Under the pieces are notes generated by a model, which did no database searches, had not been told where the DNA came from, and worked only from the letters and a program-made list of their open reading frames with translations. Made by a program: the position numbers and the translations under genes. From assembly GCA_017528085.1 (NCBI GenBank), contig JAFXPH010000002.1, positions 343,898 to 407,897 on the forward strand: a stretch of 64,000 nucleotides of DNA, written 5' to 3'. This document shows, in pieces, positions 766 through 41,500 of the stretch. This DNA is from Clostridia bacterium. Lineage in GTDB: Bacteria; Bacillota; Clostridia; TANB77; CAG-508. Every line of letters begins with the position of its first letter. Position 1 is the first letter of the stretch.

Positions 766-1632
766 TTAAGCTTTTTTTAGTATTTCTTTTTTCTCTTTTA
801 AAAATGCTCTAAATATTGCATAAACTACGATTAAAGTCATACCTCCAACAATTAATCCTGTTGCAATATTAGATAATCCATATGAAATATCTTTAAAGAT
901 ATTTTGAATTAGATTTGTGAATGATTTTTGGAATAATAAGACATTATCTATGTCAATTTTGCTCATCAAATAAGCATATCCTGCTTTAATAACAATTCCT
1001 GCTCCTAAGCATGATACACCAATATATTTTATTACATCATATATTCTTTCTCTACATTCGATTAGTAATATCAAAATTGCAGCAATTGATATTACCATTG
1101 GAAAACTATTAAACTTATTAGCTAGTTTTTGTATAGTAAGCAATAATTGTTTTACATATACATTTACATTGTCTGATAGTTTAATATTTTTCTTATATGA
1201 ACTAGATATTAAAGCTTCAAACTTTGTGATGTTTCCTTTTTCTTCTTTAGTTAAAGTTTTATTTTGAGTCTTTAAGAATGCATTAATTCTTGCATCTAAT
1301 TCCTTGTCTAATTCCTCTGTAGAAATCTCATAAGTAACATCTTCATTGAATAGACTCTCAAAAATGCCATTAATATCTGCTCTTATTTTTTCATCTGAAA
1401 CAAGATTATCTAATGTATCTTCAGGAAGACCTGATTGATAAATATAATCTTCAAATCCACTATCTACTTCTCTACTTACTTGAAGATAATATTCAGTCTC
1501 CTCCATCATCTTATAATAGTAATCTTTATTCATGCCTTTGTTATCTAAAGTGATAATTGCTATGTAAAGTAAAATTAAGCATATTATGACAAAAGATAAC
1601 AAATAACTTACTATTGTTCTTACAGTTTTCAT
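766..1632 (-). CDS. hypothetical polytopic membrane protein
   Basis: 288-aa ORF with an N-terminal TM helix and several C-terminal hydrophobic helices. No recognisable catalytic motif. Confidence 0.5.
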   Translation of the reverse strand: MKTVRTIVSYLLSFVIICLILLYIAIITLDNKGMNKDYYYKMMEETEYYLQVSREVDSGFEDYIYQSGLPEDTLDNLVSDEKIRADINGIFESLFNEDVTYEISTEELDKELDARINAFLKTQNKTLTKEEKGNITKFEALISSSYKKNIKLSDNVNVYVKQLLLTIQKLANKFNSFPMVISIAAILILLIECRERIYDVIKYIGVSCLGAGIVIKAGYAYLMSKIDIDNVLLFQKSFTNLIQNIFKDISYGLSNIATGLIVGGMTLIVVYAIFRAFLKEKKEILKKA

Positions 1633-1644
1633 TATTCCTTCCTC

Positions 1645-2259
1645 CTAATATGCTGGTTTTGCATAAACAATATATCTTTGATATGCATGTCCTATATTAT
1701 TAATTGGCCAACAAGTATAAATCATTAATATTTCTTCATCAGTTTGAATTGGAACTTTATCAGTTTCTAATTCATTTATTACTTGTTGATCATAAATCTT
1801 ATATTCGAAAGTACCATATGTAGTTTCAATCTCAATTATGTCATCAATTTTAGTTTCTGGAAGACGTGCCAAAAATTTCTTAAAGTTGTGTCCCATATAT
1901 ACTATACTTCCTCCTTCACCTGGGAAGAAAGAATTTGTATCATGACCCACTCCTCCTTTAAGAACGTTATAACTTGTGCCATAATAAATTGGAAGATTTA
2001 CTTCAATAGAATCAATTTTTAAAGTACCGTACTTACTTCCAACTGTTGGATAATTCTCTAGTTTATGATTTTCTAAAACCGGTTCTACCAAGTCTTTACT
2101 GTCTGTTTTTATAGTTACAACATCAATAAGATCTGTTGCAAGGATAAGCTTATCGTTGCCTACTTTGTATAATACAAATAGAACTATAAAAGCAAACAAA
2201 AAAGCAACTATTATTGGTATAATAGCTGCTTTTATAAACTTCTTTAAACTTTCTGTCAT
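1645..2259 (-). CDS. sortase family transpeptidase
   Basis: N-terminal membrane anchor, a His in VYMGHNF, the catalytic Cys in a TLXTC-like motif (MIYTCWP) and a downstream conserved Arg (AYQRY). Confidence 0.75.
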   Translation of the reverse strand: MTESLKKFIKAAIIPIIVAFLFAFIVLFVLYKVGNDKLILATDLIDVVTIKTDSKDLVEPVLENHKLENYPTVGSKYGTLKIDSIEVNLPIYYGTSYNVLKGGVGHDTNSFFPGEGGSIVYMGHNFKKFLARLPETKIDDIIEIETTYGTFEYKIYDQQVINELETDKVPIQTDEEILMIYTCWPINNIGHAYQRYIVYAKPAY

Positions 2260-2263
2260 CTAA

Positions 2264-2833
2264 TTAGCTTCTTTTTCTAATTACAACTAGAGTAGCAACT
2301 GCAACAATTGCAAATACTGGTAATACATAAACTAATGTATTAGCACCTGTATAAACTAAAGCATTTCCTGAAGCTGAACCTGCATTGTCATCTCTATAGA
2401 AAGCATCCATACTTCCTTTTGCAATAGCTTTACCTGTTGAATCAACAAGTGTCATTGTTTTTTCAGAAGTATTTACTTGTAATCTTAATCCTGCTTTTGA
2501 AGCAGCTGATTTCATATAAGAAACAACTTTTGCTCCTACATCTGTAGATAATTGTTCTTTCCAAATAGCACCTGTTGAAGCAATTAATGCTTCTGCAGCT
2601 TCTATATCAGCTTTAATTGATTCTGCTGTAGCATCATCAACTGGGTTAGCATTTAAATAATTTGTTATAGCTGTTCTTTGTTCTTCTGATAATGAATAAT
2701 GTGTTCCATTAACAGTATGTGTATTTGTTAAATATGTAATCAATTCACTATTTGTAAAAGCATTTACATTTACTGACATGATTGCAACAACAGCTAACAT
2801 TACACATGTCATAACTAACATTTTTGTCCTCAT
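2264..2833 (-). CDS. small secreted surface protein with a C-terminal cell-wall sorting signal (putative sortase substrate)
   Basis: Likely start is MRTKMLVMT after the RBS AAGAGG; the ORF track start at 2911 is probably too long. There is a signal peptide ending VNVNA. The C-terminus reads LVYTGAN, then a hydrophobic stretch, then RKRS. Confidence 0.5.
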   Translation of the reverse strand: MRTKMLVMTCVMLAVVAIMSVNVNAFTNSELITYLTNTHTVNGTHYSLSEEQRTAITNYLNANPVDDATAESIKADIEAAEALIASTGAIWKEQLSTDVGAKVVSYMKSAASKAGLRLQVNTSEKTMTLVDSTGKAIAKGSMDAFYRDDNAGSASGNALVYTGANTLVYVLPVFAIVAVATLVVIRKRS

Positions 2834-2980
2834 ATTTCCATACCTCTTTCCAATATATTGAATTAAAATATAATCTAATAAATTTATATCATTAATAATT
2901 TTTAAATTCAATATACTTTTAAAAACTTAACATATTTGTAACATTTCTATTTATTATTTTTTTATTTTAAGGAAATTTAC

Positions 2981-3009
2981 TTGATTTTGCATACTCCTTA
3001 GTGTATAAT
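2981..3009 (+). promoter_or_regulatory. sigma-A-type promoter for tRNA-Trp
   Basis: TTGATT at 2981-2986, a 17-nt spacer, then TATAAT at 3004-3009, about 13 nt ahead of the tRNA 5' end. Confidence 0.5.
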
Positions 3010-3022
3010 TATACATGTGTCT

Positions 3023-3096
3023 AGGGGTGTAGTTCATCGGTAGAATAAGAGTCTCCAAAACTCCTGAGGAGGGTTCGATTCCTTCCACCCCTGCCA
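3023..3096 (+). tRNA. tRNA-Trp (anticodon CCA)
   Basis: Cloverleaf read by hand. Acceptor AGGGGTG pairs with CACCCCT, followed by GCCA. The T-arm is GAGGG-TTCGATT-CCTTC. The anticodon loop CTCCAAA gives CCA. Confidence 0.85.
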
Positions 3097-3109
3097 TTAA
3101 GAATATTAA

Positions 3110-3136
3110 AACACTAGCTATTAGCTAGTGTTTTTG
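3110..3136. terminator. bidirectional rho-independent terminator
   Basis: Palindrome ACACTAGCTA..TAGCTAGTGT. It is followed by TTTTTG on the plus strand and by a U-rich tract on the minus strand. It lies after tRNA-Trp and after the minus-strand XRE gene. Confidence 0.6.
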
Positions 3137-3162
3137 TTATATTGTAATATCTAATATTACAA

Positions 3163-3669
3163 TTATTTATTCTTTTTAATTAATATTATAGTTGTTAATA
3201 CTACTACAGCAATAGGTGCTAATCTCATAAATATCCATTCAAACGCTTGATAGAATGTTCCTAATATAGCCCATTCGGTAATACTATAATCCCAAGTCTG
3301 ATAAGGACTATTTAATATTGCTAACAATATAAATAACAAAATGATACTTATATCTATGATTATCAACACTTGAATTTTTTTCTTTCTTTTTTCCTTTTGA
3401 TAATTTGATAATTGCTCATTAATTACTTCTAATTTTTCAGATAATACTTTTAAATCATCTTTTTCTTTTTTTTCAATATTTTCTCCAAGAATTTCACTAA
3501 CCGGTGTTTCAAAAAGTTCTGATATTGCTACTAGCATTTCAGCATCTGGAACAGATAATCCTGTTTCCCATTTTGAAATCGTCTGTCTTACGACATTTAA
3601 CTTAATACTTAATTCTTCTTGTGAAAGTCCTTTGTTTTTTCTTAATGTTTTTAGATTATCTTTCAACAT
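3163..3669 (-). CDS. XRE-family HTH transcriptional regulator fused to C-terminal transmembrane segments
   Basis: The N-terminus GLSQEELSIKLNVVRQTISKWETG is a Cro/CI-type HTH. A coiled linker follows, then two or three hydrophobic helices. The RBS is AAAGGAG. Confidence 0.7.
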   Translation of the reverse strand: MLKDNLKTLRKNKGLSQEELSIKLNVVRQTISKWETGLSVPDAEMLVAISELFETPVSEILGENIEKKEKDDLKVLSEKLEVINEQLSNYQKEKRKKKIQVLIIIDISIILLFILLAILNSPYQTWDYSITEWAILGTFYQAFEWIFMRLAPIAVVVLTTIILIKKNK

Positions 3670-3714
3670 AGTACAATTTCTCCTTTCATCAAGTTCAGTT
3701 TATTACAAATATGT

Positions 3715-3731
3715 CATTGCTACAAGCAATG
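3715..3731. promoter_or_regulatory. 7-bp inverted repeat (CATTGCT aca AGCAATG) in the promoter region of the XRE gene; candidate operator
   Basis: Perfect inverted repeat about 45 bp upstream of the XRE start codon. Confidence 0.35.
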
Positions 3732-3930
3732 TGTTTTAACATTTACTTTTGCTATTAATTGCAAATGATAATTAACTTTTTATATCAATATTATAACACA
3801 TATTTTTATATTTAATTACCTGGTAGTATTACTAATTTACAGGCAGTTTTATTACTTTATTTTAAGAAGTATAATAATTATGGAAAGGTTTATAAAAAAA
3901 TTTTAAACCCTATGATTATCGTGCCAAAAA

Positions 3931-3958
3931 AACTCGTAAGATACTTACGAGTTTTTTT
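3931..3958. terminator. rho-independent terminator downstream of the zinc-ribbon membrane protein gene
   Basis: Stem AACTCGTAA/TTACGAGTT, flanked by an A-run upstream and a T-run downstream (bidirectional). Confidence 0.6.
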
Positions 3959-4892
3959 AATTTTCTTTATTAATTTCTATTTTTACTATTTCTTCAGCAC
4001 CATCGCTTGTAGTTATATAACTCTTCTTTAGACTCCATGCTGCATTTCCATTTTTATCATTTATTAAATAATCTCCTTCAGAACTTCCTATAGATGCTTT
4101 CCTTAACCCTTTAGAAATTTCTGTATCTGGAGGATCTCCAACTAAAGCTCTACTATGTGTTAAGTTATGAAGAATTTTTTCTTCTATTATTCCCTCTCTA
4201 GGAAGGCTACGAGTTATAGTTATTATTAATTTTTTTAATTCTTCAGTTTCAAAGCTATACTCCTCATTTGTTTTAATACTTGTATTATTTTCAAGAGTAT
4301 GTGTATATGAGACAGTAATTCTTTTTTCTTTTGAAGCCTCATCTTGAATAATTATAGCGTCTGAAACAAAAGGAAACTCTTCATTATTAATTAATTCAGA
4401 GTAGTCATCTAATATTGAATTAATTATAGAAAAATGATTATTAAATATTGTTGGGAATTTTGCAATCACTTTAGATCCTTCTAATTTTGTACCAATAGGA
4501 TAATCATCAATACTAACTGTATTAGTCTTTTCTTTTGTCATTGATTCATATATATCTGGACCATTATATAAGATGAACCCTATAATACAATAAGCTAAAA
4601 ATGAAAGAGAAGCTATTCTAAACACAAGAAAAGCAGTAACCGCAGTTTTACCATCTGAAGAAAAAAATGAAGCTAATGAAAAAGTTATTGCTAGAACGAA
4701 TAAAAGAAAACTTGACACTTCAGCATCAAACAAAAAGCATATTACTCCTGCCACTAATAAAATTATACTAAAAATTGTAGATTTATTAATATAAAGCTTA
4801 TGTAAACTTTTGATATTATGTCCGCAATAAGGACAAACATCTCCATCTATACTAATTTCTTCACCACAATTTGGGCAATTAACCTTTCCCAT
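3957..4892 (-). CDS. zinc-ribbon-containing membrane protein, hypothetical
   Basis: The N-terminus has CPNCG..CPYCG (a zinc ribbon). About four TM helices follow, then an extracytoplasmic C-terminal domain with no known motifs. Confidence 0.5.
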   Translation of the reverse strand: MGKVNCPNCGEEISIDGDVCPYCGHNIKSLHKLYINKSTIFSIILLVAGVICFLFDAEVSSFLLFVLAITFSLASFFSSDGKTAVTAFLVFRIASLSFLAYCIIGFILYNGPDIYESMTKEKTNTVSIDDYPIGTKLEGSKVIAKFPTIFNNHFSIINSILDDYSELINNEEFPFVSDAIIIQDEASKEKRITVSYTHTLENNTSIKTNEEYSFETEELKKLIITITRSLPREGIIEEKILHNLTHSRALVGDPPDTEISKGLRKASIGSSEGDYLINDKNGNAAWSLKKSYITTSDGAEEIVKIEINKEN

Positions 4893-4933
4893 ATTTTTCT
4901 CCTTTTTTATTTATTCTTTTGATTAACTTTAAT

Positions 4934-6340
4934 CTAATCATTTTTTTCTATAGTTACATTAGGAACTAAATTAATCTGTGTTTCAAAACTTTCTTTAAAT
5001 TTTTTAACCTTAATGTTTAATATCACGCATATTATAGTAATTACAATTATTTCAAATATCAATACTACTATTCTATGTCTCTTAAATGCTCTAAGCAAAG
5101 CAATAAATATAATTAATAATAGTCCAAATGATCCTGCAACAATTGTATTATAAAGTGCAAATGGAAGTTTTTCTACAGGGTGACTTGCTACAATATTAGT
5201 TGTGTAATTAAGACCATCTGCATGGTATGTCACTTGTCCTAATACTTCATTTGCCTCAATTGGTGCAATAATATCTGAATTAATACTTACCGTTTTCTTG
5301 ATATCATCTTTATTTACTTCTTTTGGAATAATTGTAGCCATATCAGTGTTTACTACTAAATCTAAAATTTTTGAATGTTTTACTGCTTTTCCTACTTCTA
5401 ATGTTGCTATTGCATCACCTTGATCTGCAATTTTCTTAATTTCATAATTATCATACATAAATTCAAATAGATTCTTTGTATCATAAAAACGATCATTTAA
5501 TCCATGACTATTTACTGTCTCTCCACCTAACACTACTGAAATCAGGTTAATATTATCAAATGAGCTACTAGCTACTAAACATTCACCAGCAGGTGTTGTA
5601 TGTCCAGTTTTAATACCTGTACAATTTGAATAATAATATGTACCTGGATGAAGCAATTCATTTGTATTTTTAATTACTCTTTCACCCGGATAAATATCAG
5701 TAGATGGTAAAGTATAAGTTCTAGTTTTTACTATTTCATTAAAAATCTCATACTTTTGGCATTCTTTTGCAATTAAGTATAAATCATAAGCTGAGCAATA
5801 ATGGTTATCATCATGCATTCCATTAGTATTTGTAAAATGCAGTGTTTCACATCCAAGTTCTTGAGCTCTTCTGTTACATAGTTCTACAAATTCTTCTACA
5901 CTTCCGCTTACATGTTCAGCCAATACATTAGCAGCTTCATTAGCACTTGGAAGTAATAATGCATAAAGAAAATCTTTAATTGTATGCGTTTCTCCTGCTT
6001 GAAGATTTGCATTTGAATAACCAGAAGGGACCAAATCTAATGCTCTTTGAGAAACTGTAGCTACATCTGTCATCTCACAATTTTCCATTGTCACTAGAGC
6101 TGTTAATATTTTTGTAGTACTTGCAGGATACATCTTTTCATGAGCATTTTTTTCATAAAAAACTTTTCCTGTATCAGGATTAGCAATATAGACCGCTTTA
6201 CTACCTAATACAGGAATGCTTTCTATTATTTCTTGTTCATTTCTATTGTACTCAAGTTCTATATTTGCCTCTTCTGCATACACATTAATTGGTAGTAATA
6301 TAACCATTATAAGTAGCAAACATAATATTCTTTTTTTCAT
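4934..6340 (-). CDS. D-alanyl-D-alanine carboxypeptidase (serine-type, low-MW PBP)
   Basis: Signal peptide plus the SxxK motif (ASTTK), an SxN-type motif (PSAN) and the KTG motif (KTGHT). There is a C-terminal membrane anchor. Confidence 0.85.
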   Translation of the reverse strand: MKKRILCLLLIMVILLPINVYAEEANIELEYNRNEQEIIESIPVLGSKAVYIANPDTGKVFYEKNAHEKMYPASTTKILTALVTMENCEMTDVATVSQRALDLVPSGYSNANLQAGETHTIKDFLYALLLPSANEAANVLAEHVSGSVEEFVELCNRRAQELGCETLHFTNTNGMHDDNHYCSAYDLYLIAKECQKYEIFNEIVKTRTYTLPSTDIYPGERVIKNTNELLHPGTYYYSNCTGIKTGHTTPAGECLVASSSFDNINLISVVLGGETVNSHGLNDRFYDTKNLFEFMYDNYEIKKIADQGDAIATLEVGKAVKHSKILDLVVNTDMATIIPKEVNKDDIKKTVSINSDIIAPIEANEVLGQVTYHADGLNYTTNIVASHPVEKLPFALYNTIVAGSFGLLLIIFIALLRAFKRHRIVVLIFEIIVITIICVILNIKVKKFKESFETQINLVPNVTIEKND

Positions 6341-7242: not shown

Positions 7243-7806
7243 TTAAATTCTTTCCATGTATTCACCAGTTCTTGTATCTATTCTAATAACATCATCAATG
7301 TTAATGAATAGTGGAACGTTAATTTCTAATCCGTTTTCTAATTTTGCTGGTTTGAATGCTGTTGTTGAAGTATTTCCTGTAAATCCAGGTTCTGTATATT
7401 CAACTTTTAATTCAACAAATGTTGGTGGTTCAACTAAGAATACTTCACCTTGATATGATGAAATTGTGCATTCCATATTTTCTTTAATATATTTTAATGC
7501 ATCACCTAATATGTCTGCTGAAAGTGGGATTTGTTCATATGTTTCATTATCCATGAAATAATATAATCCGTCTGATTCATAAATGTATGACATAGTTTTC
7601 TTTGTGATTTCTGCTGTTTCTAATTTTTCGTTTGGATTGAATGTTCTTTCAAGGTTAGAACCTGTTTTTACGTTTTTCATCTTTACTCTTACGAATGCAG
7701 ATCCTTTTCCTGGTTTAACGTGTTGGAAATCAACTATTGTAAATACATTTCCTTCAAAATTAAAAATTGTTCCTTTTCTTAAATCTCCAGCTGATATAAT
7801 TGCCAT
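7243..7806 (-). CDS. efp: elongation factor P
   Basis: Full-length match to the EF-P family (KPGKG loop; 187 aa). Confidence 0.95.
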
Positions 7807-7873
7807 AATAATTCTCCTTTTATTTTAATTCTTAAATATTTTAGCACAAAAGTGCCAATAAATCAATATTTAC

Positions 7874-8959
7874 TTACTTTTTAGCAAGTTTTACTATCTT
7901 GTAATCTCTTGAATACTTTGTTAATGAGTTAAGTCCCATTTTATCTACAACATATGTATCTTCTATTCTTATACCAAATTTTCCAGGAATATAGACACCT
8001 GGTTCAACAGTAATAACAGAATTTTGTTTAAGCATACAATCTACTGTTGATCTTTGAATTGGTATTTCATGAATCTCAAGTCCAACTCCGTGACCAAATG
8101 AATGAAGTACTTCGTATCCTTTTAGCTTATAATCTGTTTCAACATCTTTTATGATTGGTTTAATGTTTACTTGATCTTTATATCTTAAAGCAATTCTGTC
8201 ATGAGTATCTAATACAAAGTCATATATCTTCTTGTATTCTTCTTTCATCTCACCTACAAATATTACTCTAGAAAAATCTGAACAATATCCATTAACTTTA
8301 CATCCCATATCAAATTGGATGATATCACCTTTTTGTATTTTTCTATCTGTAGGAGAAGCATGTGGTACAGAAGAATTTTCTCCTGAAGCAACGATTGTAT
8401 CAAATGCTAATCCATCAGCTCCATGATGCACAAAATATTTTTCTATTTCAAAAGCAATTTCTTTTTCTGTCATTCCTTCTACAATATGATTACAAATATA
8501 ATCAAAACAATCATCTGTAATCTTGCATGCTTTTTCAATACATTCTATTTCATCATCTTCTTTTACAACTCTTTGAGTTTCAACTATTCCATCTGTCTCA
8601 ATAAGTTCTACTCTATATTGTTGCAAATATCTTTTATAATTTTCATAAGTAACATATTTTTCTTCAAAGCCTACACTTGAGCAGCCATTAAAAACATTTT
8701 CATACTCATATTGAGTCATATCTTTAATGTTATAAGTTACTATCTCATCTTCAATTGTAAGTTTCTTATTAACATTTTCTAAGTATCTACTATCTGTCAA
8801 AAAGATATTCTCTTTTGGCGTAATAAGTAAAATACCTTCTTCAATTAGTCCAGTTAAATATCTTACGTTAATTGGATTGGATACTATCATACCATCCAAT
8901 TTTTGCGATAATAATTTATTTCTAAGAATTTTTAACTTAACATCCATATTATTTGACAC
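7874..8959 (-). CDS. Xaa-Pro aminopeptidase / M24-family peptidase
   Basis: M24 metal-binding motifs (HGVGLEIHE, a DxG.. region). The efp-adjacent position is conserved in Firmicutes. Confidence 0.85.
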   Translation of the reverse strand: MSNNMDVKLKILRNKLLSQKLDGMIVSNPINVRYLTGLIEEGILLITPKENIFLTDSRYLENVNKKLTIEDEIVTYNIKDMTQYEYENVFNGCSSVGFEEKYVTYENYKRYLQQYRVELIETDGIVETQRVVKEDDEIECIEKACKITDDCFDYICNHIVEGMTEKEIAFEIEKYFVHHGADGLAFDTIVASGENSSVPHASPTDRKIQKGDIIQFDMGCKVNGYCSDFSRVIFVGEMKEEYKKIYDFVLDTHDRIALRYKDQVNIKPIIKDVETDYKLKGYEVLHSFGHGVGLEIHEIPIQRSTVDCMLKQNSVITVEPGVYIPGKFGIRIEDTYVVDKMGLNSLTKYSRDYKIVKLAKK

Positions 8960-8967
8960 CTCATAAT

Positions 8968-9744
8968 TTAACTTTTTAATAATAAATTACTTATGTTTCT
9001 GCATATACCGAAAAATACAGTAACAACGATTCCCTTTGGTAAAAATATGCATAGAATTGCAGCTAATGTTAAAAATGGTCCAAATGCAATGTACTCATCT
9101 GTGTTTTTCTTTATTGATCTATAGATCAAAACAACTATTGAATAAATTGATGCAAGCAAGAATGCTAAAAGTGTAATGTTCAAAATATTTTGAACACCTA
9201 CTAATAGACCTAATGCACCCATAAGTTTTACATCGCCAAGTCCCATTGCTTCTTTTCCTGCAAGTAAACCTCCAAGTAGTGTAAGACCAACAAATATGCC
9301 TCCACCTACAAGCATTCCAAGTAGCATGTCTTTTACAAAATTTATATTGCTAATACCAAATAAAAATGTAAATATTAAACCTGTCTCAAATAATGTAAGT
9401 GTTAATCTATTTGGTATAATTCTATGTTCAAAATCAATATAAAATGCTAATACTAACATTGGTGTAACTACTAAATATTTAATAAGTTCAAGATTTTTAG
9501 CAGCTGTATCTTGAATACCAAATCTATACAAAATTAATACGTAGATAACAGCAACTGATATCATGTAAATATAGTTTTTTCTTAATCCTTTTTTATTTTC
9601 ATCAACAAACTCTTTTGAAAATATTGGTTTCTTTGCTATTAATCTTTCACTACACCATGCACAAAACTTACCTACAAGTAGTCCTAAAAATAACATTGCA
9701 AGGTAACTTATAATGTGCACATTATTTAAAAACATTAAGTTCAT
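8968..9744 (-). CDS. A24-family type IV prepilin peptidase
   Basis: Polytopic membrane protein. Motifs include GLGDVKLMGALG, conserved Asp residues and an N-terminal Cys pair. Confidence 0.75.
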   Translation of the reverse strand: MNLMFLNNVHIISYLAMLFLGLLVGKFCAWCSERLIAKKPIFSKEFVDENKKGLRKNYIYMISVAVIYVLILYRFGIQDTAAKNLELIKYLVVTPMLVLAFYIDFEHRIIPNRLTLTLFETGLIFTFLFGISNINFVKDMLLGMLVGGGIFVGLTLLGGLLAGKEAMGLGDVKLMGALGLLVGVQNILNITLLAFLLASIYSIVVLIYRSIKKNTDEYIAFGPFLTLAAILCIFLPKGIVVTVFFGICRNISNLLLKS

Positions 9745-31638: not shown

Positions 31639-34600
31639 TTAGTATTTATATTCATCATTTTTCTTATAGAAATACAGTGAAATTCCAACGAGTAATACTA
31701 TTAATCCAATTATTCCCACTTTTCTTGGACTTCCTGATTTAGGAATTGATGATTCACTAGTTCCAACAGGAACATCTAAAACTTTAGATGTATCAGTATT
31801 CTTAGGAACTAATATCGTCTTATCTTGTCCTTTTACTGGATTTAAATTATTATTACTACTTTGTTCTTCTCTTGGCACATCCATTTGTGGGTTTTCCTCT
31901 GAAGTACCAGTATTTACAGGTTCATTATTATCAATTTGTCCTACTGGTTCGTTATGTACTTCTACTACATCATCCTGATTATCAACTACATTATTTACTA
32001 CTGTATTTGTTGCATTTGTTGTATTTGTTGTATTAGTTGTATTTGTAGTATTTGTTACTTCTTCAGTCAATGTTGTATTTACTACATCATTCACTATATC
32101 AATTTGTCCTGTAGGTTTAATAATATTTCCATCTTCATCTACAAAGTTACCATCATTATCTATCAAATTTCCATCGTCATCATATAGAGCAATCTTAAAT
32201 GGTGCGTACTCTGAATATCTTTCATTTCCTGCTCTATCTACAACATAAGTTTGAGCAAAATATCTTTTATATAATTCTAAATTATCAAATCGTAAGCTAT
32301 CTTGCCATGGAGTAGAATTATTTTGTTCATCTATAATTCTGTATTTAGTAAATTTCTCATCTATACCACTTAATTCATCAATTTGATTTAGAGTAACATC
32401 TATACAGTCTTGATTATTCTCTACAATTTGAACTGATGGAGCTGTATTTGTTGGTGGTTCTTTATCTATATTATTTACAATTAAAAGAACTTCTGGGCTA
32501 TAGAAATAGCCATCTGTATATCTTGCATATACTTTGTCACCATACTCAGTTGCTACTTGTCTATCAGTGTCTTCCCACTCTCCATCATTTAATTTTGTTT
32601 GAACAAAATAGTTTTCAAGTTGAGAAGAAATAACAGTAACATCTCCATTAGTCCATCTATCTCCAACCGTTGTTGATAAAGTTGGAGGATCATCTAAGTC
32701 AAATAATGTTTCATCCGGTGTTGGATATAAATGTTGGATATTATTAATAATTATAGATATTGGTTCTCCATAATTATAACCATCTGTTAGTCTTGCATAA
32801 ACTACTCCATTATTCTCTAAAGTTTGTCTATCAATATCTACATATTTTTTACCATTAGTACTTGTTTGAATATCAAAATCACTATCTGTACTTGCAATTA
32901 CTGTTACATTTAAGAATGTAGTTACATCTAATGGTACATCTGGAGTAAGAATTATTGCTTCTTCTCCACTTGGAATAGTAAGCATAGTTACCTCTGTAAC
33001 TTCTGAATAAGCTTCATTTCCTGCTCTATCTTTTGCATATGTTTGTATGTAATAAGTTTCACCTTGTTTTAATCTATCAAATACTGGATTTGATTGCCAT
33101 GATCCTGAATTTCCATCCACATCAGTTAATCTATATAATTTTGTTTCAATACCGCTTTCGTTATCTACTTGTTTTATACCAGAATAGATATATCTTGTAG
33201 TTACTTTACTTGCTACTGGAGCAGTATTTGTAGGTGGAACTTTATCAATTTTATTTACCATAACAGATGTTGGTTCACCATATTCATATCCATCTGTTAA
33301 TCTTGCATAAACTTGAATATTGTCGTCTACTTCAACTTCTGTAACATTAGTATAGTTTGTTCCATCTATACTCATTTGAATATCGTAAATATTCTCTTTT
33401 ACTTTTTTAGCAGTAACTATCTTATTTTGATTTGTCCAATTTGGATTATTTACTGAAAGTGATAAAGCTTCTGATGCTTTTGGAATTGGTTCTGACTTAT
33501 CTAGTAAGAACTCATTTCTTTCACTTACTTGTTCATTTCCTGCATTATCAGTTGCCTTTGTCCAAATATAATATGTTGAATGGTTTATTAATCCTTCAAG
33601 TGATATTGTATCTACTGATTCCATCCATTCAACAGTTGATGGTAATGTATCATCTGTTGAGATGTAGAAATATTGTTTATTTATGCCACTTCCTCCAGAT
33701 TCATCTTTTTGATTACATTTTAATGTTGCCTTTTTAGATTCCATCTGTGTTACTGTTGGCATATCAGTTGAAGGTTTTTGCTTATCAATCTTTGTAACAG
33801 TAATATTTGTTGAAGTTCCAAATGCTCCATTATATGAATATCTTGCATATACTTTTCCATTTTCAGGAACACTTATTTGAGTTCTATCAGTATATGATGT
33901 TCCATCAAGACTCATTTGAATTACATATTTTGGATCTTCACCTGAAGCTGCTGTTACTACTTTATTTCTATTTGTCCAGTCAGGATTATCAACTGTAAGT
34001 GTTATGCTTGTTCCTGCAGGTATTGGATCTGGAGTAGGTGTACTAGTTTTAAAGTTATTTGAAGCACTTACTTGTTCATTTCCTGCATTATCTATTACTC
34101 TTGTCCATACATAATATGTTTTTGATTCAGTAAGTCCTGTAAATTCAAGAGTTGTTCCCGTTCCTTTTACCCAAGATGGATTACTTGGAAGACTACTTCC
34201 TTCTTGCATATAGAAATAGTATTCTTTTATTCCACTTCCACCTGAATTATCTGTTTGATTAGCCTTCACAGTTGCCTTATTTGTTGTAATATTGCTTACA
34301 GTTGGTTTATCTGTTGAAGGTTTTACTTTATCTATTTTAGTAACATCAATATATGTTGATGTTCCATATTCTCCGTTATATGCAAGCCTTGCATATACTC
34401 TTGTATTTTGGTCTACTGCTAAAGTTGTTCTATTTGAATAATTTGTTCCGTCTGAACTCATTTGAACAGTATATTTAGAATCTGCAGATGACACAGCAGT
34501 TACTGTTTTATTAGAATTTGTCCAATTTGGATTATCTACACTTAAAGTAATTGCATCGCTTCCGCTTGGAATTGGATTTGATGGCTCAGCAGATGTTTTA

Positions 34601-37600
34601 ACTGTAGCTCTACTTGATACTGTTTCATTTCCTGCTTTATCTTTTACTTTTGTCCAGAAATAATAATTTGTATTTGATTCTAATGAGCTAAATGTATATG
34701 TTTTATTTGTGTTTGTTACCCAACTTGGATTACTTGGTATTGTATTTGATTTTGATGCAAAGAAACTATATGTACCATTTAATCCGGAAGCAGCATCTGT
34801 TTGTTCACACCTAATAGTAACTGAATTATATGTGCTTTCTGTTATTGTAGGTGCACTATTTGTTGGTGCTACTTTATCTATTTTAGTAACATCAATAGAT
34901 GTTGGTGATCCATATTCTCCGTTATATGCAAGTCTTGCATATACTGTTGAATTTTGTGCTACACTTAATGTTGTTCTATTTGAATAGTTTGTTCCATCTG
35001 AACTCATTTGAACAGTATATTTAGAATCTGCAGATGAAACTGCTGTTACTGTTTTATTAGAATTTGTCCAATTTGGATTATCTACACTTAAAGTAATTGC
35101 ATCGCTTCCACTTGGAATTGGATTTGATGGCTCAGCAGATGTTTTAACAAAAGCTCTACTTGATACTGTTTCATTTCCTGCTTTATCTTTTACTTTTGTC
35201 CAGAAATAATAATTTGTATTTGATTCTAATGAGCTAAATGTATATGTTTTATTTGAGTTTGTTACCCAACTTGGATTACTTGGAATAGAGTTTGACTTTG
35301 ATGCATAAAAACTATATGGACTATCTAATCCAGAAGCAGCATCTGTTTGCTCACATCTAATAGTAACTGAATTATATGTACTAGATGTTATTGTAGGTGC
35401 ATTATTTGTTGGTGCAACCCTATCAAAACAACTTACTGTGTATGAATATGTACCTTCATTATCATAAGTATCAGTTGCGCTAAATCTATATGTTCCATTA
35501 TCACTTACATTATATGAATAAACACTTCCTGAGTGAGTTGTAACCTCCGTTTTTGTTCCTCCTGGTGGTGTTACATATACTTTTTTGACTCCTGAAGAAT
35601 CTGTTACATTAACTTTAAGTGTTCTAGATGAAGCATTAGTATATGATGTATCAAAAGAATTTAAAGTAATCGTTGGTCCTGTTGTATCTGAAGGTGTTGT
35701 TTCTAACACTAGTTCTGAAGAAGGTCCTACATTTCCAAGTGTATCAATGCATCTAAAGTATATTTTACTTTGTCCAGTCTTATTGATGTTTAAATATAGA
35801 TTTCCATTTCTTGGAAGAGAACCTGATCTTATACTTACATCACTTCCAGAACTTGTTATATCTTTAAAACTTGAATTATTATAAGAGTATTCTATAGTTC
35901 CTACCTGTGATTTTTCATCAGAAATATGAATATTTACTGTATAAAGACTACTACTGTTAGTTAAACTATCATAAGTAGGTGCTATTGGTCCTTCATTATC
36001 TATTCTTGAAACTGTATAGTTTAAACCAGCTGTATATCCACTTTTGTTTTTTGCTTCAAAAGTATATTTACCATTTTCTTTAGCTATATATGTGTAAACA
36101 TTACTACTATTAATAGTAAGATTTGTTGTATTACCATCTGGATCTGTAACTTTAAAATACTCTAATCCTCTAGAATCATGTGGAATTACATTTAATGTGA
36201 TTGTTAATGTTCTAGCAGTTCCAGAACTTGGACTAGAAGAAAGACTTATTTCTGGAGTGCCTACTGTTCCTGGATCAGGATCATCTCCACCTCCACCAGA
36301 AAGGCCATTTACTGTAAAGCCAGCTCCTCTTGAATTTCCAGCATTATCTTCTGCATAGATATAATATGTTCCATTTTCTGTAACATAATAAATGTAATTT
36401 CCTTGCTCATCTGGTACCATATTGTCTTGAATAATATTTGTTTTATCATTTTTTGCTAAATAAACTCTTCTTATTCCTGAATCTGCATCATATGCAGTTC
36501 CTATACCTTGTTTTGGTGTAGTAGCATCTGCAGCAGTTGGTATAATATTTGTAACTACTGGTGGTGTTGTGTCTTGTTTTTCCCATACAGCTGTTAAGAC
36601 TACTGGACCTGTTACACCACTTCCTCTTGGAGAAAGTGATGGCTCAGGACCATTAGCACCATTCCATCCAAGGAATCTATATCCACTTCTAGTTATTGAT
36701 CCAATAGTAAATGTATTATTTGTATTATATGTTTGATTTAATGAAGTGTACTTACCATAAGTTAAATTATAAATAATATTATATGTTGAAGGTAGTGTCC
36801 AATATTTATATAACATATCTACGGCAACGGCACGAGATATTTGACTAGTAGGTCCATACGTTGAACCCGTATCTGTAATAATACCTTTTGAATAACACCA
36901 ACAAATTGCTTTATAAAACCAATCTGAGCTTGTAACATCAGTATATGGTAATGATATTGATGAAACTTGAGGTGAATCTGCTAATCTATATATCATTGTT
37001 GCATATTCAGCTTTTGTGCATGCTCTTTCTGGTTCAAATGTTCCAGAAGGATTCCCTTCTACTATATGTTTTTTTTCTAAAGCCCATTTAATGGCATTTG
37101 CATAGTAGCTAGTTCTAGGTACATCGCTAAAAGCATATAAATTATTTTCATAATCTACATTATCTCGTCCTCTAAATAAGACTCCATCTAGATTATATGA
37201 TCTATATATAATCTCTACAGCATCTCCTCTTTTTATTGAATTATTTGGAGAAAATGTATTTGATGTTGTTCCATTTACTATTCCATTTTTTAATGCCCAA
37301 TCAACAGCATTATAATATTGATTTGACATTGGCACATCAGTAAATGTTCTCATGACATTCATATTTATAAAATAAGATCTAACTGTATTCTCTCCAAAAG
37401 ATAATGGACATTTATTATTTTTACTAGAATTAGTTGAAGTAGAAGTACAATTTTGATATACACAATCGTAAGCCCTAAATCCTCCAAAATCAAACATATT
37501 GTTTTCAGCTTTACAGTTATTCACAACAAATCTATCACTTGTTTCTGTAGCTACATAATCTTCTGGAGAATAGTATCCTTGATGTTCAAAAAAGAACCCA

Positions 37601-38448
37601 TATTTATAATTATCATTAGCTTCACAATTATCAATATATATAGATTCTTCATTTACATAACCTGTTCCTATTCCAAATCCTGACGCTCCTTTAGCATTTT
37701 CTCCTCCTCCGTTAGTAGCTTTATCTGCTTCTCTTCCACAACCAATCGCTTTACAGTTTGTAATTGTGCATTCAATAGGACAATCCATACCAAATCCTGT
37801 TGCAATTGTATCTTTAACAATAACATTATCCCAATCGCAGTATTTAAAAAGATTAATCATAAATCCTTTTCCCGCAGAATTATACACATCACAACTAGCC
37901 TCTTTTCCATCAATTACGAAAGAAGAAAAATCTGCATTTACTAAATATTTATATTTTCCACCTTCCATTATTCTTTCACGAACACTATTATAATAGAATA
38001 AGTCTAAACCTTGCTCGACTTTTCCATAAGGTTTTAGAATGGTATTTTCACCTTTTCCAATAATTTTTACATTATTTTTTGGAGCAAGACAATATCCAAA
38101 TGGTTCATATTTTCCAGTTTTAGCATTATAAGCATAATCAGCCATATTAAAGTAAAATGTTCCTGCAGGTAGATATATTTCTCCTCCGCCACTATTACTT
38201 ACTGTATCAATTAGTCCTTGTAAATATACTCTATTAGCTTTCATTATAGCTTCAGTTTTTCCAGTCTTAAGTCCAGTTGCAGAAACTGTTAAGCCATTGA
38301 AATCACTGAATTCTCCGGCATAATAATGTTTAGTTTTATGACCAACAAATAAACAGCACAAAGTAGCTATTATAATCATAATAGCTACCCAACCTCTAAT
38401 ATTTAGTTTCTTTTTTCTCTTCACATATGTTTGATCTGTATAAATCAT
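31639..38448 (-). CDS. giant cell-wall-anchored surface protein (2269 aa)
   Basis: Domain order: signal anchor; right-handed beta-helix (PbH1 repeats, NCKA.. type); three SLH-like domains; a Listeria-Bacteroides-type repeat; at least six Ig/FN3-like modules of about 180 aa; a Thr/Asn-rich stalk; then IPKSG plus a hydrophobic stretch plus KK, which is a sortase-type signal. Confidence 0.8.
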   Translation of the reverse strand: MIYTDQTYVKRKKKLNIRGWVAIMIIIATLCCLFVGHKTKHYYAGEFSDFNGLTVSATGLKTGKTEAIMKANRVYLQGLIDTVSNSGGGEIYLPAGTFYFNMADYAYNAKTGKYEPFGYCLAPKNNVKIIGKGENTILKPYGKVEQGLDLFYYNSVRERIMEGGKYKYLVNADFSSFVIDGKEASCDVYNSAGKGFMINLFKYCDWDNVIVKDTIATGFGMDCPIECTITNCKAIGCGREADKATNGGGENAKGASGFGIGTGYVNEESIYIDNCEANDNYKYGFFFEHQGYYSPEDYVATETSDRFVVNNCKAENNMFDFGGFRAYDCVYQNCTSTSTNSSKNNKCPLSFGENTVRSYFINMNVMRTFTDVPMSNQYYNAVDWALKNGIVNGTTSNTFSPNNSIKRGDAVEIIYRSYNLDGVLFRGRDNVDYENNLYAFSDVPRTSYYANAIKWALEKKHIVEGNPSGTFEPERACTKAEYATMIYRLADSPQVSSISLPYTDVTSSDWFYKAICWCYSKGIITDTGSTYGPTSQISRAVAVDMLYKYWTLPSTYNIIYNLTYGKYTSLNQTYNTNNTFTIGSITRSGYRFLGWNGANGPEPSLSPRGSGVTGPVVLTAVWEKQDTTPPVVTNIIPTAADATTPKQGIGTAYDADSGIRRVYLAKNDKTNIIQDNMVPDEQGNYIYYVTENGTYYIYAEDNAGNSRGAGFTVNGLSGGGGDDPDPGTVGTPEISLSSSPSSGTARTLTITLNVIPHDSRGLEYFKVTDPDGNTTNLTINSSNVYTYIAKENGKYTFEAKNKSGYTAGLNYTVSRIDNEGPIAPTYDSLTNSSSLYTVNIHISDEKSQVGTIEYSYNNSSFKDITSSGSDVSIRSGSLPRNGNLYLNINKTGQSKIYFRCIDTLGNVGPSSELVLETTPSDTTGPTITLNSFDTSYTNASSRTLKVNVTDSSGVKKVYVTPPGGTKTEVTTHSGSVYSYNVSDNGTYRFSATDTYDNEGTYSYTVSCFDRVAPTNNAPTITSSTYNSVTIRCEQTDAASGLDSPYSFYASKSNSIPSNPSWVTNSNKTYTFSSLESNTNYYFWTKVKDKAGNETVSSRAFVKTSAEPSNPIPSGSDAITLSVDNPNWTNSNKTVTAVSSADSKYTVQMSSDGTNYSNRTTLSVAQNSTVYARLAYNGEYGSPTSIDVTKIDKVAPTNSAPTITESTYNSVTIRCEQTDAASGLNGTYSFFASKSNTIPSNPSWVTNTNKTYTFSSLESNTNYYFWTKVKDKAGNETVSSRATVKTSAEPSNPIPSGSDAITLSVDNPNWTNSNKTVTAVSSADSKYTVQMSSDGTNYSNRTTLAVDQNTRVYARLAYNGEYGTSTYIDVTKIDKVKPSTDKPTVSNITTNKATVKANQTDNSGGSGIKEYYFYMQEGSSLPSNPSWVKGTGTTLEFTGLTESKTYYVWTRVIDNAGNEQVSASNNFKTSTPTPDPIPAGTSITLTVDNPDWTNRNKVVTAASGEDPKYVIQMSLDGTSYTDRTQISVPENGKVYARYSYNGAFGTSTNITVTKIDKQKPSTDMPTVTQMESKKATLKCNQKDESGGSGINKQYFYISTDDTLPSTVEWMESVDTISLEGLINHSTYYIWTKATDNAGNEQVSERNEFLLDKSEPIPKASEALSLSVNNPNWTNQNKIVTAKKVKENIYDIQMSIDGTNYTNVTEVEVDDNIQVYARLTDGYEYGEPTSVMVNKIDKVPPTNTAPVASKVTTRYIYSGIKQVDNESGIETKLYRLTDVDGNSGSWQSNPVFDRLKQGETYYIQTYAKDRAGNEAYSEVTEVTMLTIPSGEEAIILTPDVPLDVTTFLNVTVIASTDSDFDIQTSTNGKKYVDIDRQTLENNGVVYARLTDGYNYGEPISIIINNIQHLYPTPDETLFDLDDPPTLSTTVGDRWTNGDVTVISSQLENYFVQTKLNDGEWEDTDRQVATEYGDKVYARYTDGYFYSPEVLLIVNNIDKEPPTNTAPSVQIVENNQDCIDVTLNQIDELSGIDEKFTKYRIIDEQNNSTPWQDSLRFDNLELYKRYFAQTYVVDRAGNERYSEYAPFKIALYDDDGNLIDNDGNFVDEDGNIIKPTGQIDIVNDVVNTTLTEEVTNTTNTTNTTNTTNATNTVVNNVVDNQDDVVEVHNEPVGQIDNNEPVNTGTSEENPQMDVPREEQSSNNNLNPVKGQDKTILVPKNTDTSKVLDVPVGTSESSIPKSGSPRKVGIIGLIVLLVGISLYFYKKNDEYKY
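34325..35416. repeat. two near-identical tandem copies of a 546-bp (182-aa) unit inside the giant gene
   Basis: Direct comparison of 34325-34870 with 34871-35416 shows only scattered mismatches. Older, more diverged copies flank the pair. Confidence 0.8.
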
Positions 38449-38513: not shown

Positions 38514-41500
38514 TTAAACATCTTCTAAATCTTTATTTCTCTTTACAAAGTATAGAGAAATTCCGATTAACAATAATGCTACACCAAATATTCCAACATT
38601 TGAATCTTTACCAGTTTTTGGCATATTTGAATTTGCTTCTGTGTTATTAATTATATTAGTTATATTTGTTATTGATGTATTTGTTGTAGTGTTTGTTGTT
38701 GTATTAGTTTTCTTTACGGCTCCTACTGCTGAATTTGATTTAGGAACTAACACAACTACATTGTTGTTGTTATTCTCTTCAATTACTTGTGTATCATTAT
38801 TTTGTTGTTCTGTTTGAGTTGTCTCTTCTGTTTTCTTAACTTCACCAACCTCATCAAGATTTGGTGCTGGTTCAGGTTCAATTACTGGCTCAGGTGTTGG
38901 TTCTTGTTGTTCATTATTATTGTTATTTGGTTCTGGATCTTGATTTACTGGATCTTCAGTTAATTCTGAACCAGAGTTTGGATTTACCTGATTATTAGTT
39001 TCATTTGGATCAATATCCTCTGAAATGCTTGTACCAATTTCTGAACCATTGTTGTCTGTATTACCATTTCCCCCAACTGGTTCATTATTATCTATTCTTA
39101 CAAAGTTTCCATTTTCATCTTGTCTTAGATAATGTCCATCTTTATCTATTATATTTCCATCATCGTCATAAAGGATTACCATGAATGAACCTTCCTCAGA
39201 AATTTGTTCATTTCCTACTAAGTCTATTGCAAGTGTTTGTCCTTTATATACTTTGTATGATTCTATATTTCTAAATATATTATCTGTTTGCCACTCACCG
39301 ATATTTCCATCTGGATCTATTATTCTATATTTAATGTGATCTGTATCTTGTGGTATACCAGATTGATCATCTGTTTGTTGGAATGTAAACATTACTATTG
39401 ATAAATCTTCACCATTTGCTCTTTCAACAATTGAGAATCCAGGTATTTCTGCGTTTGGTGGAGTCTTATCAATATTTGTAACTTGAAATTTTGCTTCCTC
39501 ACTATATGAAGTTCCATCATAATATCTTGCATATACTATGTCATCATTACTTTCAACTGTTTGGAATGCTGTATATTCCCAATCACCATCATTTAATTTT
39601 GTTTGAACCATATAATCTTTTACTCTGTCAACTCTTATTCTAACTGTGTCTCTTGTCCATGTTTCAGGATTAATTGTACAAGTTGGAACTTCTTCTAAAG
39701 TAAACATATCTGGGTCTGGTGTTGGAAGTGGAGCTTGTATATTAGTTACATCTATATAAATTGGTTCTGAATAGTTAACACCATCTGTTAATCTTCCATA
39801 AACCCTTCCATTTGTTTCCATTACTACTGAAGAAACATTTAAGTATTTTTCTCCATTTCTGCTCATTTGGATTGTTAAGTCTGGATCTGAACTTTTAGCA
39901 ACTACTGTTACATTTGTAAATGCCATCTCAGTATTTGGTGTTGATGGTGTAAGTGTTAATACATCTTCTGTATTTGGCAATTTAGCAGTTGTTGCAGAAG
40001 TAAGTTCTGATACCATTTCATTTCCTGCATTATCAACTACTCTAGTTTGTACCTTATATGTTGTATCTTGGTTAAGTTTATTAAATGTTCCATAGCTTTG
40101 CCATGCACCATAGTTTCCATCTGGATCAACTAATCTATATTTTGTTTCTCCTAGATTAATACCACTTAATGTGTCTGTTTGCTTTGATGTAGCAATTATT
40201 GATGCAGATGTTACTTTTGTTATAGCAGGTGCAGTATTTGTAGGTGCAACTTTATCAATATGGTGGCATTCCATTGTTAAAGGCTCACTATAGTTTGTAC
40301 CATCATATAAGCAAGCTTTAATTGTACAAATCTCAGTTGCAACTGCTTGAGTTCTTGGTGAGTAATTAGCACCACCATCTGTACTCATAACTATTGTATA
40401 AGGTGTACCTTCTACTGTTTTAAGAATTTTTGCTGTAACTGTAATATCTTGGTTTGTCCAAACTGATGTTGGTTTATCAGGAATTAATGTTATATATGTA
40501 CTTGTTTTATCTAATGCTTTAGTTGTTACTTTTGTTGTTTTTGATTCTTGTGTATTTCCAGCATTATCTGTTACTTTAGTTTGAATATAATATTCTCCTG
40601 ATGGAATACCTGTAAATGTATCTGATGTTTGATAGTCTTTAAAGACTGTAGTTTCATTACTTAATACTCTATATCTAATAGTAGATTCTTTTATCTTTGA
40701 AGCAGCATCTGTTTGTTTACATGTTACTTTAAATGAAGAAGTTGTAATATCACTAGCTGCTGGTGCTGCATCTGTTGGATTTACTTTATCAATGTTCTTG
40801 ATTTCAATAGTTTCATATCTAGATGAAGCATTTGTTCCATCTGATAATTTTACATATACCCTCTTATTCTCACTAACAGTAATTGTTGTTCTTTGTGTAA
40901 AGTCTGCTGCAGTAGTAGTTTCGCTTAGTAATACTCTCATTCCTGTAGCTGATGTAGAAACTGTTACTTTAACTGTTCCATTTGTCCATGTATCTGCATT
41001 AGGTGTCAAAGTATAAGTTACATTTCCACCTTCACCTATAACTGGATCTGGAACATTTACATAGTCATACTCTAATACTTGAGATTCTGTAGAATAACCA
41101 TAACGATCTGTTGCTTTTGTTTGAACATAGTACTTTTGTCCAGATGTCATTTTTAATTCATTACTTGATTGATATGTACCACTCGTTCCTGCAGCATTTG
41201 TTAATCTATATTGAGTTTTTGATTCATCAACACCACCCATAGCATCTACTTGATTACACTTAAATGTAGCTCCTGTAGCTGTTTTAGCTATAAAAGATGG
41301 TTTAGCATTTGATGGACCAGTAACATCTATGTTTGATACACTATAGTTTCCTACTAAAGTACCCTCTTTCTCAGTTCCGCTTTCTGTGTACTTATATTTA
41401 ACAGTTATTTTATAAGATCCATTTTCTGTTACATCTTTAGTATGATCCTTATTTGTAGATGATGTGTAAACAACATCAGTACCTCTAGCAATCTCAACAC

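Follow-up and report, generated by a model that had tools for sequence, protein, structure and literature searches.

We studied a gene cassette on the minus strand of a 64,000-nucleotide stretch of DNA (the window, i.e., the whole of what was analysed) from a Clostridia bacterium of the TANB77 lineage, contig JAFXPH010000002.1, positions 343,898 to 407,897. The cassette encodes a small secreted protein, a sortase and a membrane protein, and its comparison with relatives indicates that it probably represents a sortase and its dedicated substrate, with LxYTG as a new sorting signal, in a three-gene operon under a strong housekeeping-type promoter, whose most likely function is to anchor the small protein to the cell wall. 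An original prediction, made from the window alone, had placed a sortase beside a small protein with a signal peptide, an LVYTG-AN motif, a hydrophobic helix and a final RKRS; both open reading frames (ORFs) were found where they had been located, and the sortase matched Pfam PF04203 (E = 2e-22, 79.6 bits against a cutoff of 26.6). The order of the two genes had to be corrected: the small protein had been said to follow the sortase, but on the minus strand its gene lies upstream of the sortase gene by 4 nt. The third gene of the operon had been missed. In 5' to 3' order the three tightly packed genes encode substrate, sortase and membrane protein, separated by gaps of 4 and 12 nt; these genes and the elements of the sorting signal are as follows.

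2264-2833, minus strand: substrate gene, encoding a secreted protein of 189 amino acids from a family without annotation; stop codon at 2264-2266
2345-2359, minus strand: sorting motif L-V-Y-T-G, residues 159-163, codons TTA GTT TAT ACA GGT
2267-2344, minus strand: rest of the sorting signal, made of AN, the 20-residue hydrophobic helix TLVYVLPVFAIVAVATLVVI and the basic tail RKRS
1645-2259, minus strand: sortase gene, encoding 204 amino acids, 4 nt downstream of the substrate gene
766-1632, minus strand: third gene, encoding a membrane protein of 288 amino acids, 12 nt downstream of the sortase gene

The start of the substrate gene was set at the ATG at 2833, which has the ribosome-binding site GGAAAGAGG upstream and yields the 189-residue product. 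A longer ORF of 215 amino acids opening at TTG 2911 was rejected as the substrate gene, given that the ribosome-binding site belongs to ATG 2833, that the N-termini of homologues agree with this ATG, and that the TTG falls within the -35 hexamer of the operon promoter (see below). Residues 1-25 (2759-2833) form the signal peptide, MRTKMLVMTCVMLAVVAIMSVNVNA, followed by FT; next come a mature alpha/beta domain at about residues 26-144 (some 120 residues), a short Ser/Gly/Asn linker and the sorting signal, in which the predicted scissile bond lies between Thr162 and Gly163. The tripartite layout of cell-wall sorting signals (a protein that begins with a signal peptide and whose very C-terminus consists of a short motif ending in T-G, a hydrophobic helix and a basic tail) was present in the window substrate and in all the syntenic homologues. 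The LPXTG-anchor model TIGR01167 gave no match to the substrate at E <= 0.1 in the NCBIfam scan, and searches of Pfam and NCBIfam with the window substrate and six diverse homologues, one of them of 517 amino acids, returned nothing meaningful. Across the family, the linker between domain and motif was as short as about 5 residues in the LAYTG group and elsewhere could exceed 100 residues rich in Pro, Asp, Asn, Ser and Thr, the long ones resembling wall-spanning regions as in anchored proteins.

The evidence for a dedicated pair came mainly from relatives of the cassette. A scan with the sortase alignment over one genome per GTDB species gave 236 confirmed species-level matches, and the best 80 of these 236 all belonged to uncultured gut Clostridia, known as metagenome-assembled genomes (MAGs) from samples of humans, mice, rabbits, chickens and ruminants; Candidatus Scatovivens was among them. 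Those best 80 and five more loci reached through the substrate made up the locus set. The complete cassette of substrate, sortase and membrane protein was found in 83 of 86 sources, about 80 species-level MAGs of gut Clostridia. Directly upstream of the sortase gene, the relatives encode a signal-peptide protein of 170-300 amino acids (517 in locus L035) with the same tripartite C-terminus, and directly downstream a membrane protein of about 280 amino acids with the signature NFENYIYQSG. A clean count of signals covered 892 kb from the 86 sources, in which six-frame translation gave 3118 ORFs of 60 amino acids or more: a C-terminal xxYTG followed by a hydrophobic segment and a basic tail was present in 83 of the sources, always directly upstream of the sortase and once per source, except in L077, which has two. 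At or above roughly 55% identity, the sortase itself had over 490 homologues.

The motif was by far the best conserved part of the substrate. Across the 79 distinct substrates aligned, the motif's Thr and Gly were conserved in 100% and its Leu and Tyr in 97%, the only fully invariant columns apart from Met1 lay within the motif, and the identity of the rest of the protein to the window substrate, over aligned residues, dropped to 26-29%. Since the motif stays nearly invariant while the remainder diverges to this extent, it seems to be the most strongly selected part of the family, as expected of an enzyme recognition site. The family consensus was K-L-[A/V/L/S]-Y-T-G-[N/A/S]-[N/D]. In the 79 loci first parsed, position 2 was occupied by Ala (30), Val (22), Leu (20), Ser (4) or Pro (1), and the motif Thr was followed by Gly in 79 of 79; L061 has Thr at position 2. 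A word-indexed search reached only 12 close homologues of the substrate, all of which keep L-[V/L]-Y-T-G. The dedicated sortase-substrate pair with a non-LPXTG signal that had been proposed at the outset thus gained strong support from the comparison, through synteny in about 80 species-level genomes, conservation of the motif and the coexistence of a second type of signal (see below).

Several loci showed variants of this arrangement. In L077 the substrate gene is duplicated in tandem (146-679 and 822-1361), the copies ending in LAYTG and LPYTG, and the latter holds the sole Pro at position 2 in the family. The cassette substrate of L061 ends in LTYTG, and about 800 nt upstream of the cassette this locus encodes an extra Thr/Asn-rich secreted protein of 123 amino acids (3190-3654) with LPYAG, a helix and a basic tail. 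FANTG (L062, 4472-5029) and VKQTG (L064, 4454-4999) are the signals of the two most divergent substrates, whose cassettes are otherwise intact, which suggests that the signal can drift together with its sortase. In L013 the sortase and the third gene are kept and the LxYTG gene is missing; a 400-nt gap (4584-4986), which may mark a lost or degraded substrate, follows a 486-amino-acid protein with a type IV prepilin-like N-terminus.

The N-terminus of the sortase carries a membrane anchor (about residues 10-32), and besides PF04203 the enzyme matched TIGR01076 with 71.9 bits (cutoff 39.35). Its catalytic triad, His124 (1888-1890), Cys183 within MIYTCWP (1711-1713) and Arg195 (1675-1677), was invariant in 20 homologues and aligned with the GH, TTC and RY catalytic residues of B. 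anthracis SrtD in PDB entry 2ln7. This entry (5e-11) and 4d70, C. perfringens SrtD (1.7e-9), were the nearest in the PDB. In a classification by hidden Markov models (HMMs), the SrtD and class D models were the top-ranked NCBIfam models for the window sortase and 19 relatives, but all scores stayed below the curated class cutoffs. The window sortase reached 107.3 bits with the "LPxTATN-specific" SrtD model NF058671 (cutoff 140), 103.4 with the class D model NF033746 (cutoff 165), 72.4 with class C (cutoff 160), 40.1 with the class E model NF033747 (cutoff 160) and 41 with class GN. NCBIfam gave no class A or class B match for it at E <= 0.1, and class F turned up once among the 20 relatives scanned, as a marginal match (E 8e-4), and not for the window sortase. 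On these scores the enzyme is best described as a distinct subfamily related to class D; although the class D models rank top, it was not filed in class D because it falls below their curated cutoffs.

A putative promoter precedes the operon:

2883-2911, minus strand: putative sigma-A promoter of the operon, with -35 TTGAAT (2911-2906), a 17-nt spacer ending in TGA and -10 TATAAA (2888-2883), 49 nt before the ATG

An equivalent element was present in 71 of 79 loci, 30-50 nt upstream of the substrate start, made of an A-tract, (C/G)TATTGCA (CTATTGCA), a 17-nt spacer and TGnTATAAT, and 57 of these 71 have the extended -10 TG. A promoter of sigma-A type suggests vegetative and probably strong expression rather than sporulation-specific expression. 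The class D systems of Bacillus are expressed specifically in sporulation; a sporulation role by analogy with them was considered and rated unlikely, given the conserved sigma-A-type promoter before the operon. The spore protein mentioned as an option in the original prediction likewise finds no support in the putative promoter, which looks like the conserved extended -10 kind of sigma-A type and not like one for a sporulation sigma factor. Genes of GerA type occur near the cassette in L001 and are not conserved neighbours.

Among known systems, the cassette most resembles those of class D. A 2021 review lists the motifs of the classes as LPXTG (A), (N/S/P)PXTG (B), LPXTG (C), LPXTA (D), LAXTG (E) and LPXTG (F) (PMC8225981), and as a whole the LxYTG signal appears to fit none of them. 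Class D enzymes encoded beside their substrates include B. anthracis SrtC/SrtD with BasH and BasI (LPNTA) and B. subtilis YhcS with YhcR (PMC8225981 for class membership and motifs). With these the window sortase shares the best HMM class, the nearest solved structures, the N-terminal anchor, the layout GH...TC-x-P...IG-x-A-x-x-RY and a position beside its one or two substrates; the Asn/Asp two residues after the Gly (P3') also parallels the final Asn of the LPxT-A-T-N signal of SrtD. It differs in its scores below the cutoffs, in a signal without proline, with Tyr at the "x" position and with Gly instead of Ala after the Thr, as well as in a vegetative-looking promoter, a conserved third membrane protein and hosts that are uncultured gut Clostridia.

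Two other systems share the departure from the LPXTG signal. Class E sortases (Streptomyces SrtE1/E2, Corynebacterium SrtE/SrtF), with the signal LAxTG (PMC8225981), also accept a non-proline residue at position 2, and the commonest variant here, LAYTG (30 of 79), formally fits LAxTG. In the present family, however, Val (as in the window), Leu, Ser, Thr and Pro also occur at position 2, Tyr is obligatory at position 3, the class E model gives 40 bits against 160, the hosts are Firmicutes, and the enzyme belongs to a one-substrate cassette instead of having a housekeeping role. Clostridioides difficile SrtB, with its [S/P]PxTG substrates, is likewise a clostridial sortase with a non-LPXTG signal, and two giant proteins of the window (see below) carry signals of a similar type, IPKSG and MPKTG; the window sortase, in contrast, has no class B match at E <= 0.1, and the substrate beside it bears LVYTG and not xPxTG. 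A full-text literature search for LAYTG, LVYTG, LLYTG and LxYTG found no sortase paper, and a broader one on novel sorting motifs and gut metagenomes found nothing relevant. The curated libraries Pfam and NCBIfam have models neither for the substrate and the third protein nor for this sortase subfamily, and the source annotations of the homologues call the substrate a "hypothetical protein" and the enzyme "sortase A" or a generic sortase. The logic of a sortase-substrate cassette is thus familiar, and what is new is the signal, the enzyme subfamily and the obligatory partner protein.

From the anatomy of the genes and the established chemistry of sortases, the following pathway can be proposed. 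The small protein would be exported by Sec and lose its signal peptide after VNA, and the C-terminal helix and RKRS tail would hold the precursor in the membrane. The adjacent membrane-anchored sortase, with the triad Cys183, His124 and Arg195, would recognise K/x-L-[A/V/L/S]-Y-T-G-[N/A/S]-[N/D] and cut the Thr162-Gly163 bond by way of a thioacyl intermediate on Cys183. The C-terminal Thr would then be passed to an amino-group acceptor, most likely the amine of the peptidoglycan cross-bridge on lipid II, and the small alpha/beta domain would end up bound covalently to the wall, near the membrane. The sortase would have evolved towards a proline-free signal with an obligatory Tyr at a position that is normally variable. 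We are less sure of the acceptor than of the pair.

Some observations weigh against this proposal or soften parts of it. The pattern is broken in three of the 86 sources, by FANTG in L062, by VKQTG in L064 and by the lack of a substrate gene in L013. In many homologues the motif follows the folded domain almost directly, after a linker of 5-8 residues, which is odd for display through a thick wall and leaves room for an acceptor outside the wall. The predicted structure of the substrate, a small domain of helices plus hairpins that is not Ig-like/CnaB, is of moderate confidence (predicted local distance difference test, pLDDT, 60), and the promoter is a consensus match in AT-rich DNA. The term "dedicated" reflects adjacency and the coexistence of a second type of signal, not whole-genome counts of sortases, and both the cleavage and the acceptor are read from the sequence and from what is known of sortase chemistry.

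The most serious alternative, which we still consider unlikely, is that the sortase is a general housekeeping enzyme that also anchors proteins with xPK[TS]G or LPKTG signals, the LxYTG protein being merely its neighbour and perhaps its most abundant substrate. Consistent with it, a tblastn search of the 64-kb window and, at the other loci, of flanks within 5 kb of the cassette found no second sortase there, and proteins with other signals do occur in the window without a nearby sortase. One is a giant surface protein of 2269 amino acids (31639-38448, minus strand) with three SLH domains and fn3, ending in IPKSG, a helix and a basic tail, which appears to carry two different wall-attachment devices in one protein, the SLH domains and the IPKSG signal. 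The other, of 1091 amino acids (38514-41789, minus strand), has no Pfam domain and ends in MPKTG, a helix and a tail. The LVYTG motif had been noted at the outset to differ from the signals of these giants, and it does.

In addition, an LPKTG-type protein is encoded directly upstream of the cassette at nine loci of one sub-clade (L044, L050, L051, L054, L069, L075, L079, L083 and L084). These nine proteins, of 240-820 amino acids and unrelated to the LxYTG substrate, carry LPKTG, LPSTG or LPKAG with a distinct tail, RYKSIK, and their genes end about 50-100 nt before the LAYTG gene. They were considered as paralogues of the substrate and discarded, as BLAST found no similarity between them and the LxYTG substrates. 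Such neighbours could be read as further clients of the sortase, but the two kinds of signal differ at every specificity position, with Pro in place of A/V/L/S at position 2 and Lys in place of the invariant Tyr at position 3, and in their tails, RYKSIK in the LPKTG type against RKKLANA in the LxYTG type. The presence of unrelated LPKTG proteins with a different tail at some loci shows that one genome can hold both kinds of signal, and implies a separate specificity. Moreover, the LxYTG gene is universal beside the sortase whereas the LPKTG neighbour is limited to a sub-clade, and the strict conservation of Tyr and of N/D on the primed side argues for a tailored enzyme-signal pair.

The third gene bears on the nature of the acceptor. 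Its product is predicted to have its N-terminus inside, a first transmembrane helix at 7-28, a helical extracellular cap at 29-173 (about 145 residues), two further transmembrane helices at 174-193 and 203-225, an amphipathic outer loop at 226-255, a fourth transmembrane helix at 256-277 and its C-terminus inside; the AlphaFold model was confident (pLDDT 81). The signature is NFENYIYQSG, and the invariant residues (S67, D86 and Y146) as well as the highly conserved ones (Y38, F60, E61, Y63, Q66 and G68) all lie in the cap. A search with 19 members found no Pfam or NCBIfam family for the protein. At E <= 1e-3 an exhaustive HMM search collected 1331 clusters (50% identity); most of the 150 clusters listed were of 260-300 amino acids. 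As the gene is constantly present, the protein presumably belongs to the anchoring pathway, where perhaps it presents the substrate or the acceptor, or acts as a partner of the anchored protein.

Two independent structure comparisons singled out one PDB protein as similar to the third protein, namely Lit, the lipoprotein intramolecular transacylase of B. cereus (7b0o/7b0p). Foldseek placed it at ranks 1 to 3 with probability 0.95-0.99, but the E values of 0.08-0.23 and TM-scores of 0.36-0.45, all below 0.5, make this a weak match, and the likeness appears to lie in the four-helix topology with an extracellular cap. An HMM of third-protein homologues did not find 7b0o/7b0p among PDB sequences at E <= 10, in keeping with the lack of detectable sequence similarity, and the cap is larger (about 145 residues) in the third protein. 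The catalytic dyad of Lit is His85/His153 (PMC8275575); the family has no invariant or majority His column among 19 and 65 aligned members, and thus no conserved counterpart of that dyad. The third gene is also encoded with a sortase and not with lipoprotein-processing or copper-resistance genes. The third protein would accordingly resemble Lit in its fold at most, without being a Lit itself.

This resemblance nevertheless gives some substance to a further alternative, which we regard as doubtful: an acceptor other than peptidoglycan, for instance an amine-bearing membrane lipid or a lipid-linked intermediate, that the Lit-like protein would bind, remodel or make available. Sortase and third protein would then work together, on the outer side of the membrane, to join the small protein to a lipid or lipid-linked acceptor and not simply to the wall, giving a lipid-anchored or membrane-proximal product. 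The constant co-occurrence of the third gene agrees with this, as do the identity of its sole structural neighbour by two methods, a lipid-handling enzyme of the outer-leaflet interface with apparently the same four-helix-plus-cap topology, the invariant or highly conserved polar residues of the cap (S67, D86, Y146, E61 and Q66), and the 5-8-residue linkers of many substrates, which would suit an anchor close to the membrane. It is weakened by the slightness of the structural match, with neither sequence similarity nor the catalytic histidines, and by the long linkers of wall-spanning type in other family members, which fit ordinary wall anchoring; furthermore, sortases are not known to have a lipid acceptor other than lipid II. 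If it were true, the cassette would be a Gram-positive, sortase-based counterpart of lipid anchoring of the glycosylphosphatidylinositol or rhombosortase type.

Polymerisation of the small protein into a pilus or fibre, in the fashion of class C sortases, is very improbable. A dedicated sortase beside a single small substrate, class C as the second-best HMM call (72 bits) and the Lys that precedes the motif in 61 of 79 homologues could be taken in its favour, but the class C score is far under the cutoff of 160, the window substrate has Ala before its motif, and across the 79 aligned substrates no position of the mature domain holds Lys in 80% or more. The cassette contains neither a minor pilin nor a second sortase, and the predicted fold is not that of an Ig-like/CnaB pilin, so the "pilin-like" nature offered in the original prediction was not borne out. 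Least credible of all is that LxYTG is no sortase signal but part of a tail-anchored membrane protein, with another role for the motif and an incidental sortase nearby: the motif does lack the canonical proline and escapes the LPXTG-anchor HMM, but it sits at the exact place of a sorting signal, with the typical T-G end, a hydrophobic helix and a basic tail after it, and the sortase is adjacent in 83 of 86 sources across deep divergence.

The preferred reading, a dedicated pair with an LxYTG signal, would have consequences for the classification of sortases. The classes are defined largely by their signals, and the textbook motifs keep Pro, or Ala in class E, at position 2 and leave position 3 free (PMC8225981). 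Here a whole clade of abundant uncultured gut Clostridia (the 236 species-level matches) seems to combine A/V/L/S at position 2 with an obligatory Tyr, a conserved primed side and its own sortase subfamily. If biochemistry confirms it, this would be a new specificity class, useful as an orthogonal enzyme-tag pair for "sortagging"; predictors based on LPXTG would be missing surface proteins of gut anaerobes; and two unannotated protein families would gain a function, of which the membrane-protein family by itself comprises over 1300 clusters at 50% identity. Through its product's weak likeness to an enzyme that modifies lipids, the obligatory third gene could turn a routine member of the sortase systems into a mechanistically new pathway.

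The surroundings of the operon in the window include the following features on its upstream side.

3023-3096, plus strand: lone tRNA-Trp (CCA), between the operon promoter and the hairpin
3108-3134: bidirectional terminator-like hairpin with a perfect 12-bp stem, bounding the operon on its upstream side

Together, the tRNA-Trp and the hairpin set the cassette apart from the gene upstream (3163-3669, minus strand), which encodes an Xre-type helix-turn-helix protein with C-terminal transmembrane helices; beyond it, a zinc-ribbon protein with several transmembrane helices is encoded at 3957-4892 (minus strand), so that two small membrane-tethered proteins adjoin the cassette. Downstream of the third gene, below position 700 or so, a new gene begins with a promoter-like site of its own. 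A few kb from the cassette lies a conserved neighbourhood of genes for an A24 prepilin peptidase, an M24 Xaa-Pro peptidase and EF-P, at 7243-9744 (minus strand) in the window and at 2175-4677 in the distant relatives L001-L004. Since the cassette lies near this neighbourhood both in the window and in distant relatives, it was probably inherited vertically at a stable chromosomal site and not carried on a mobile element.

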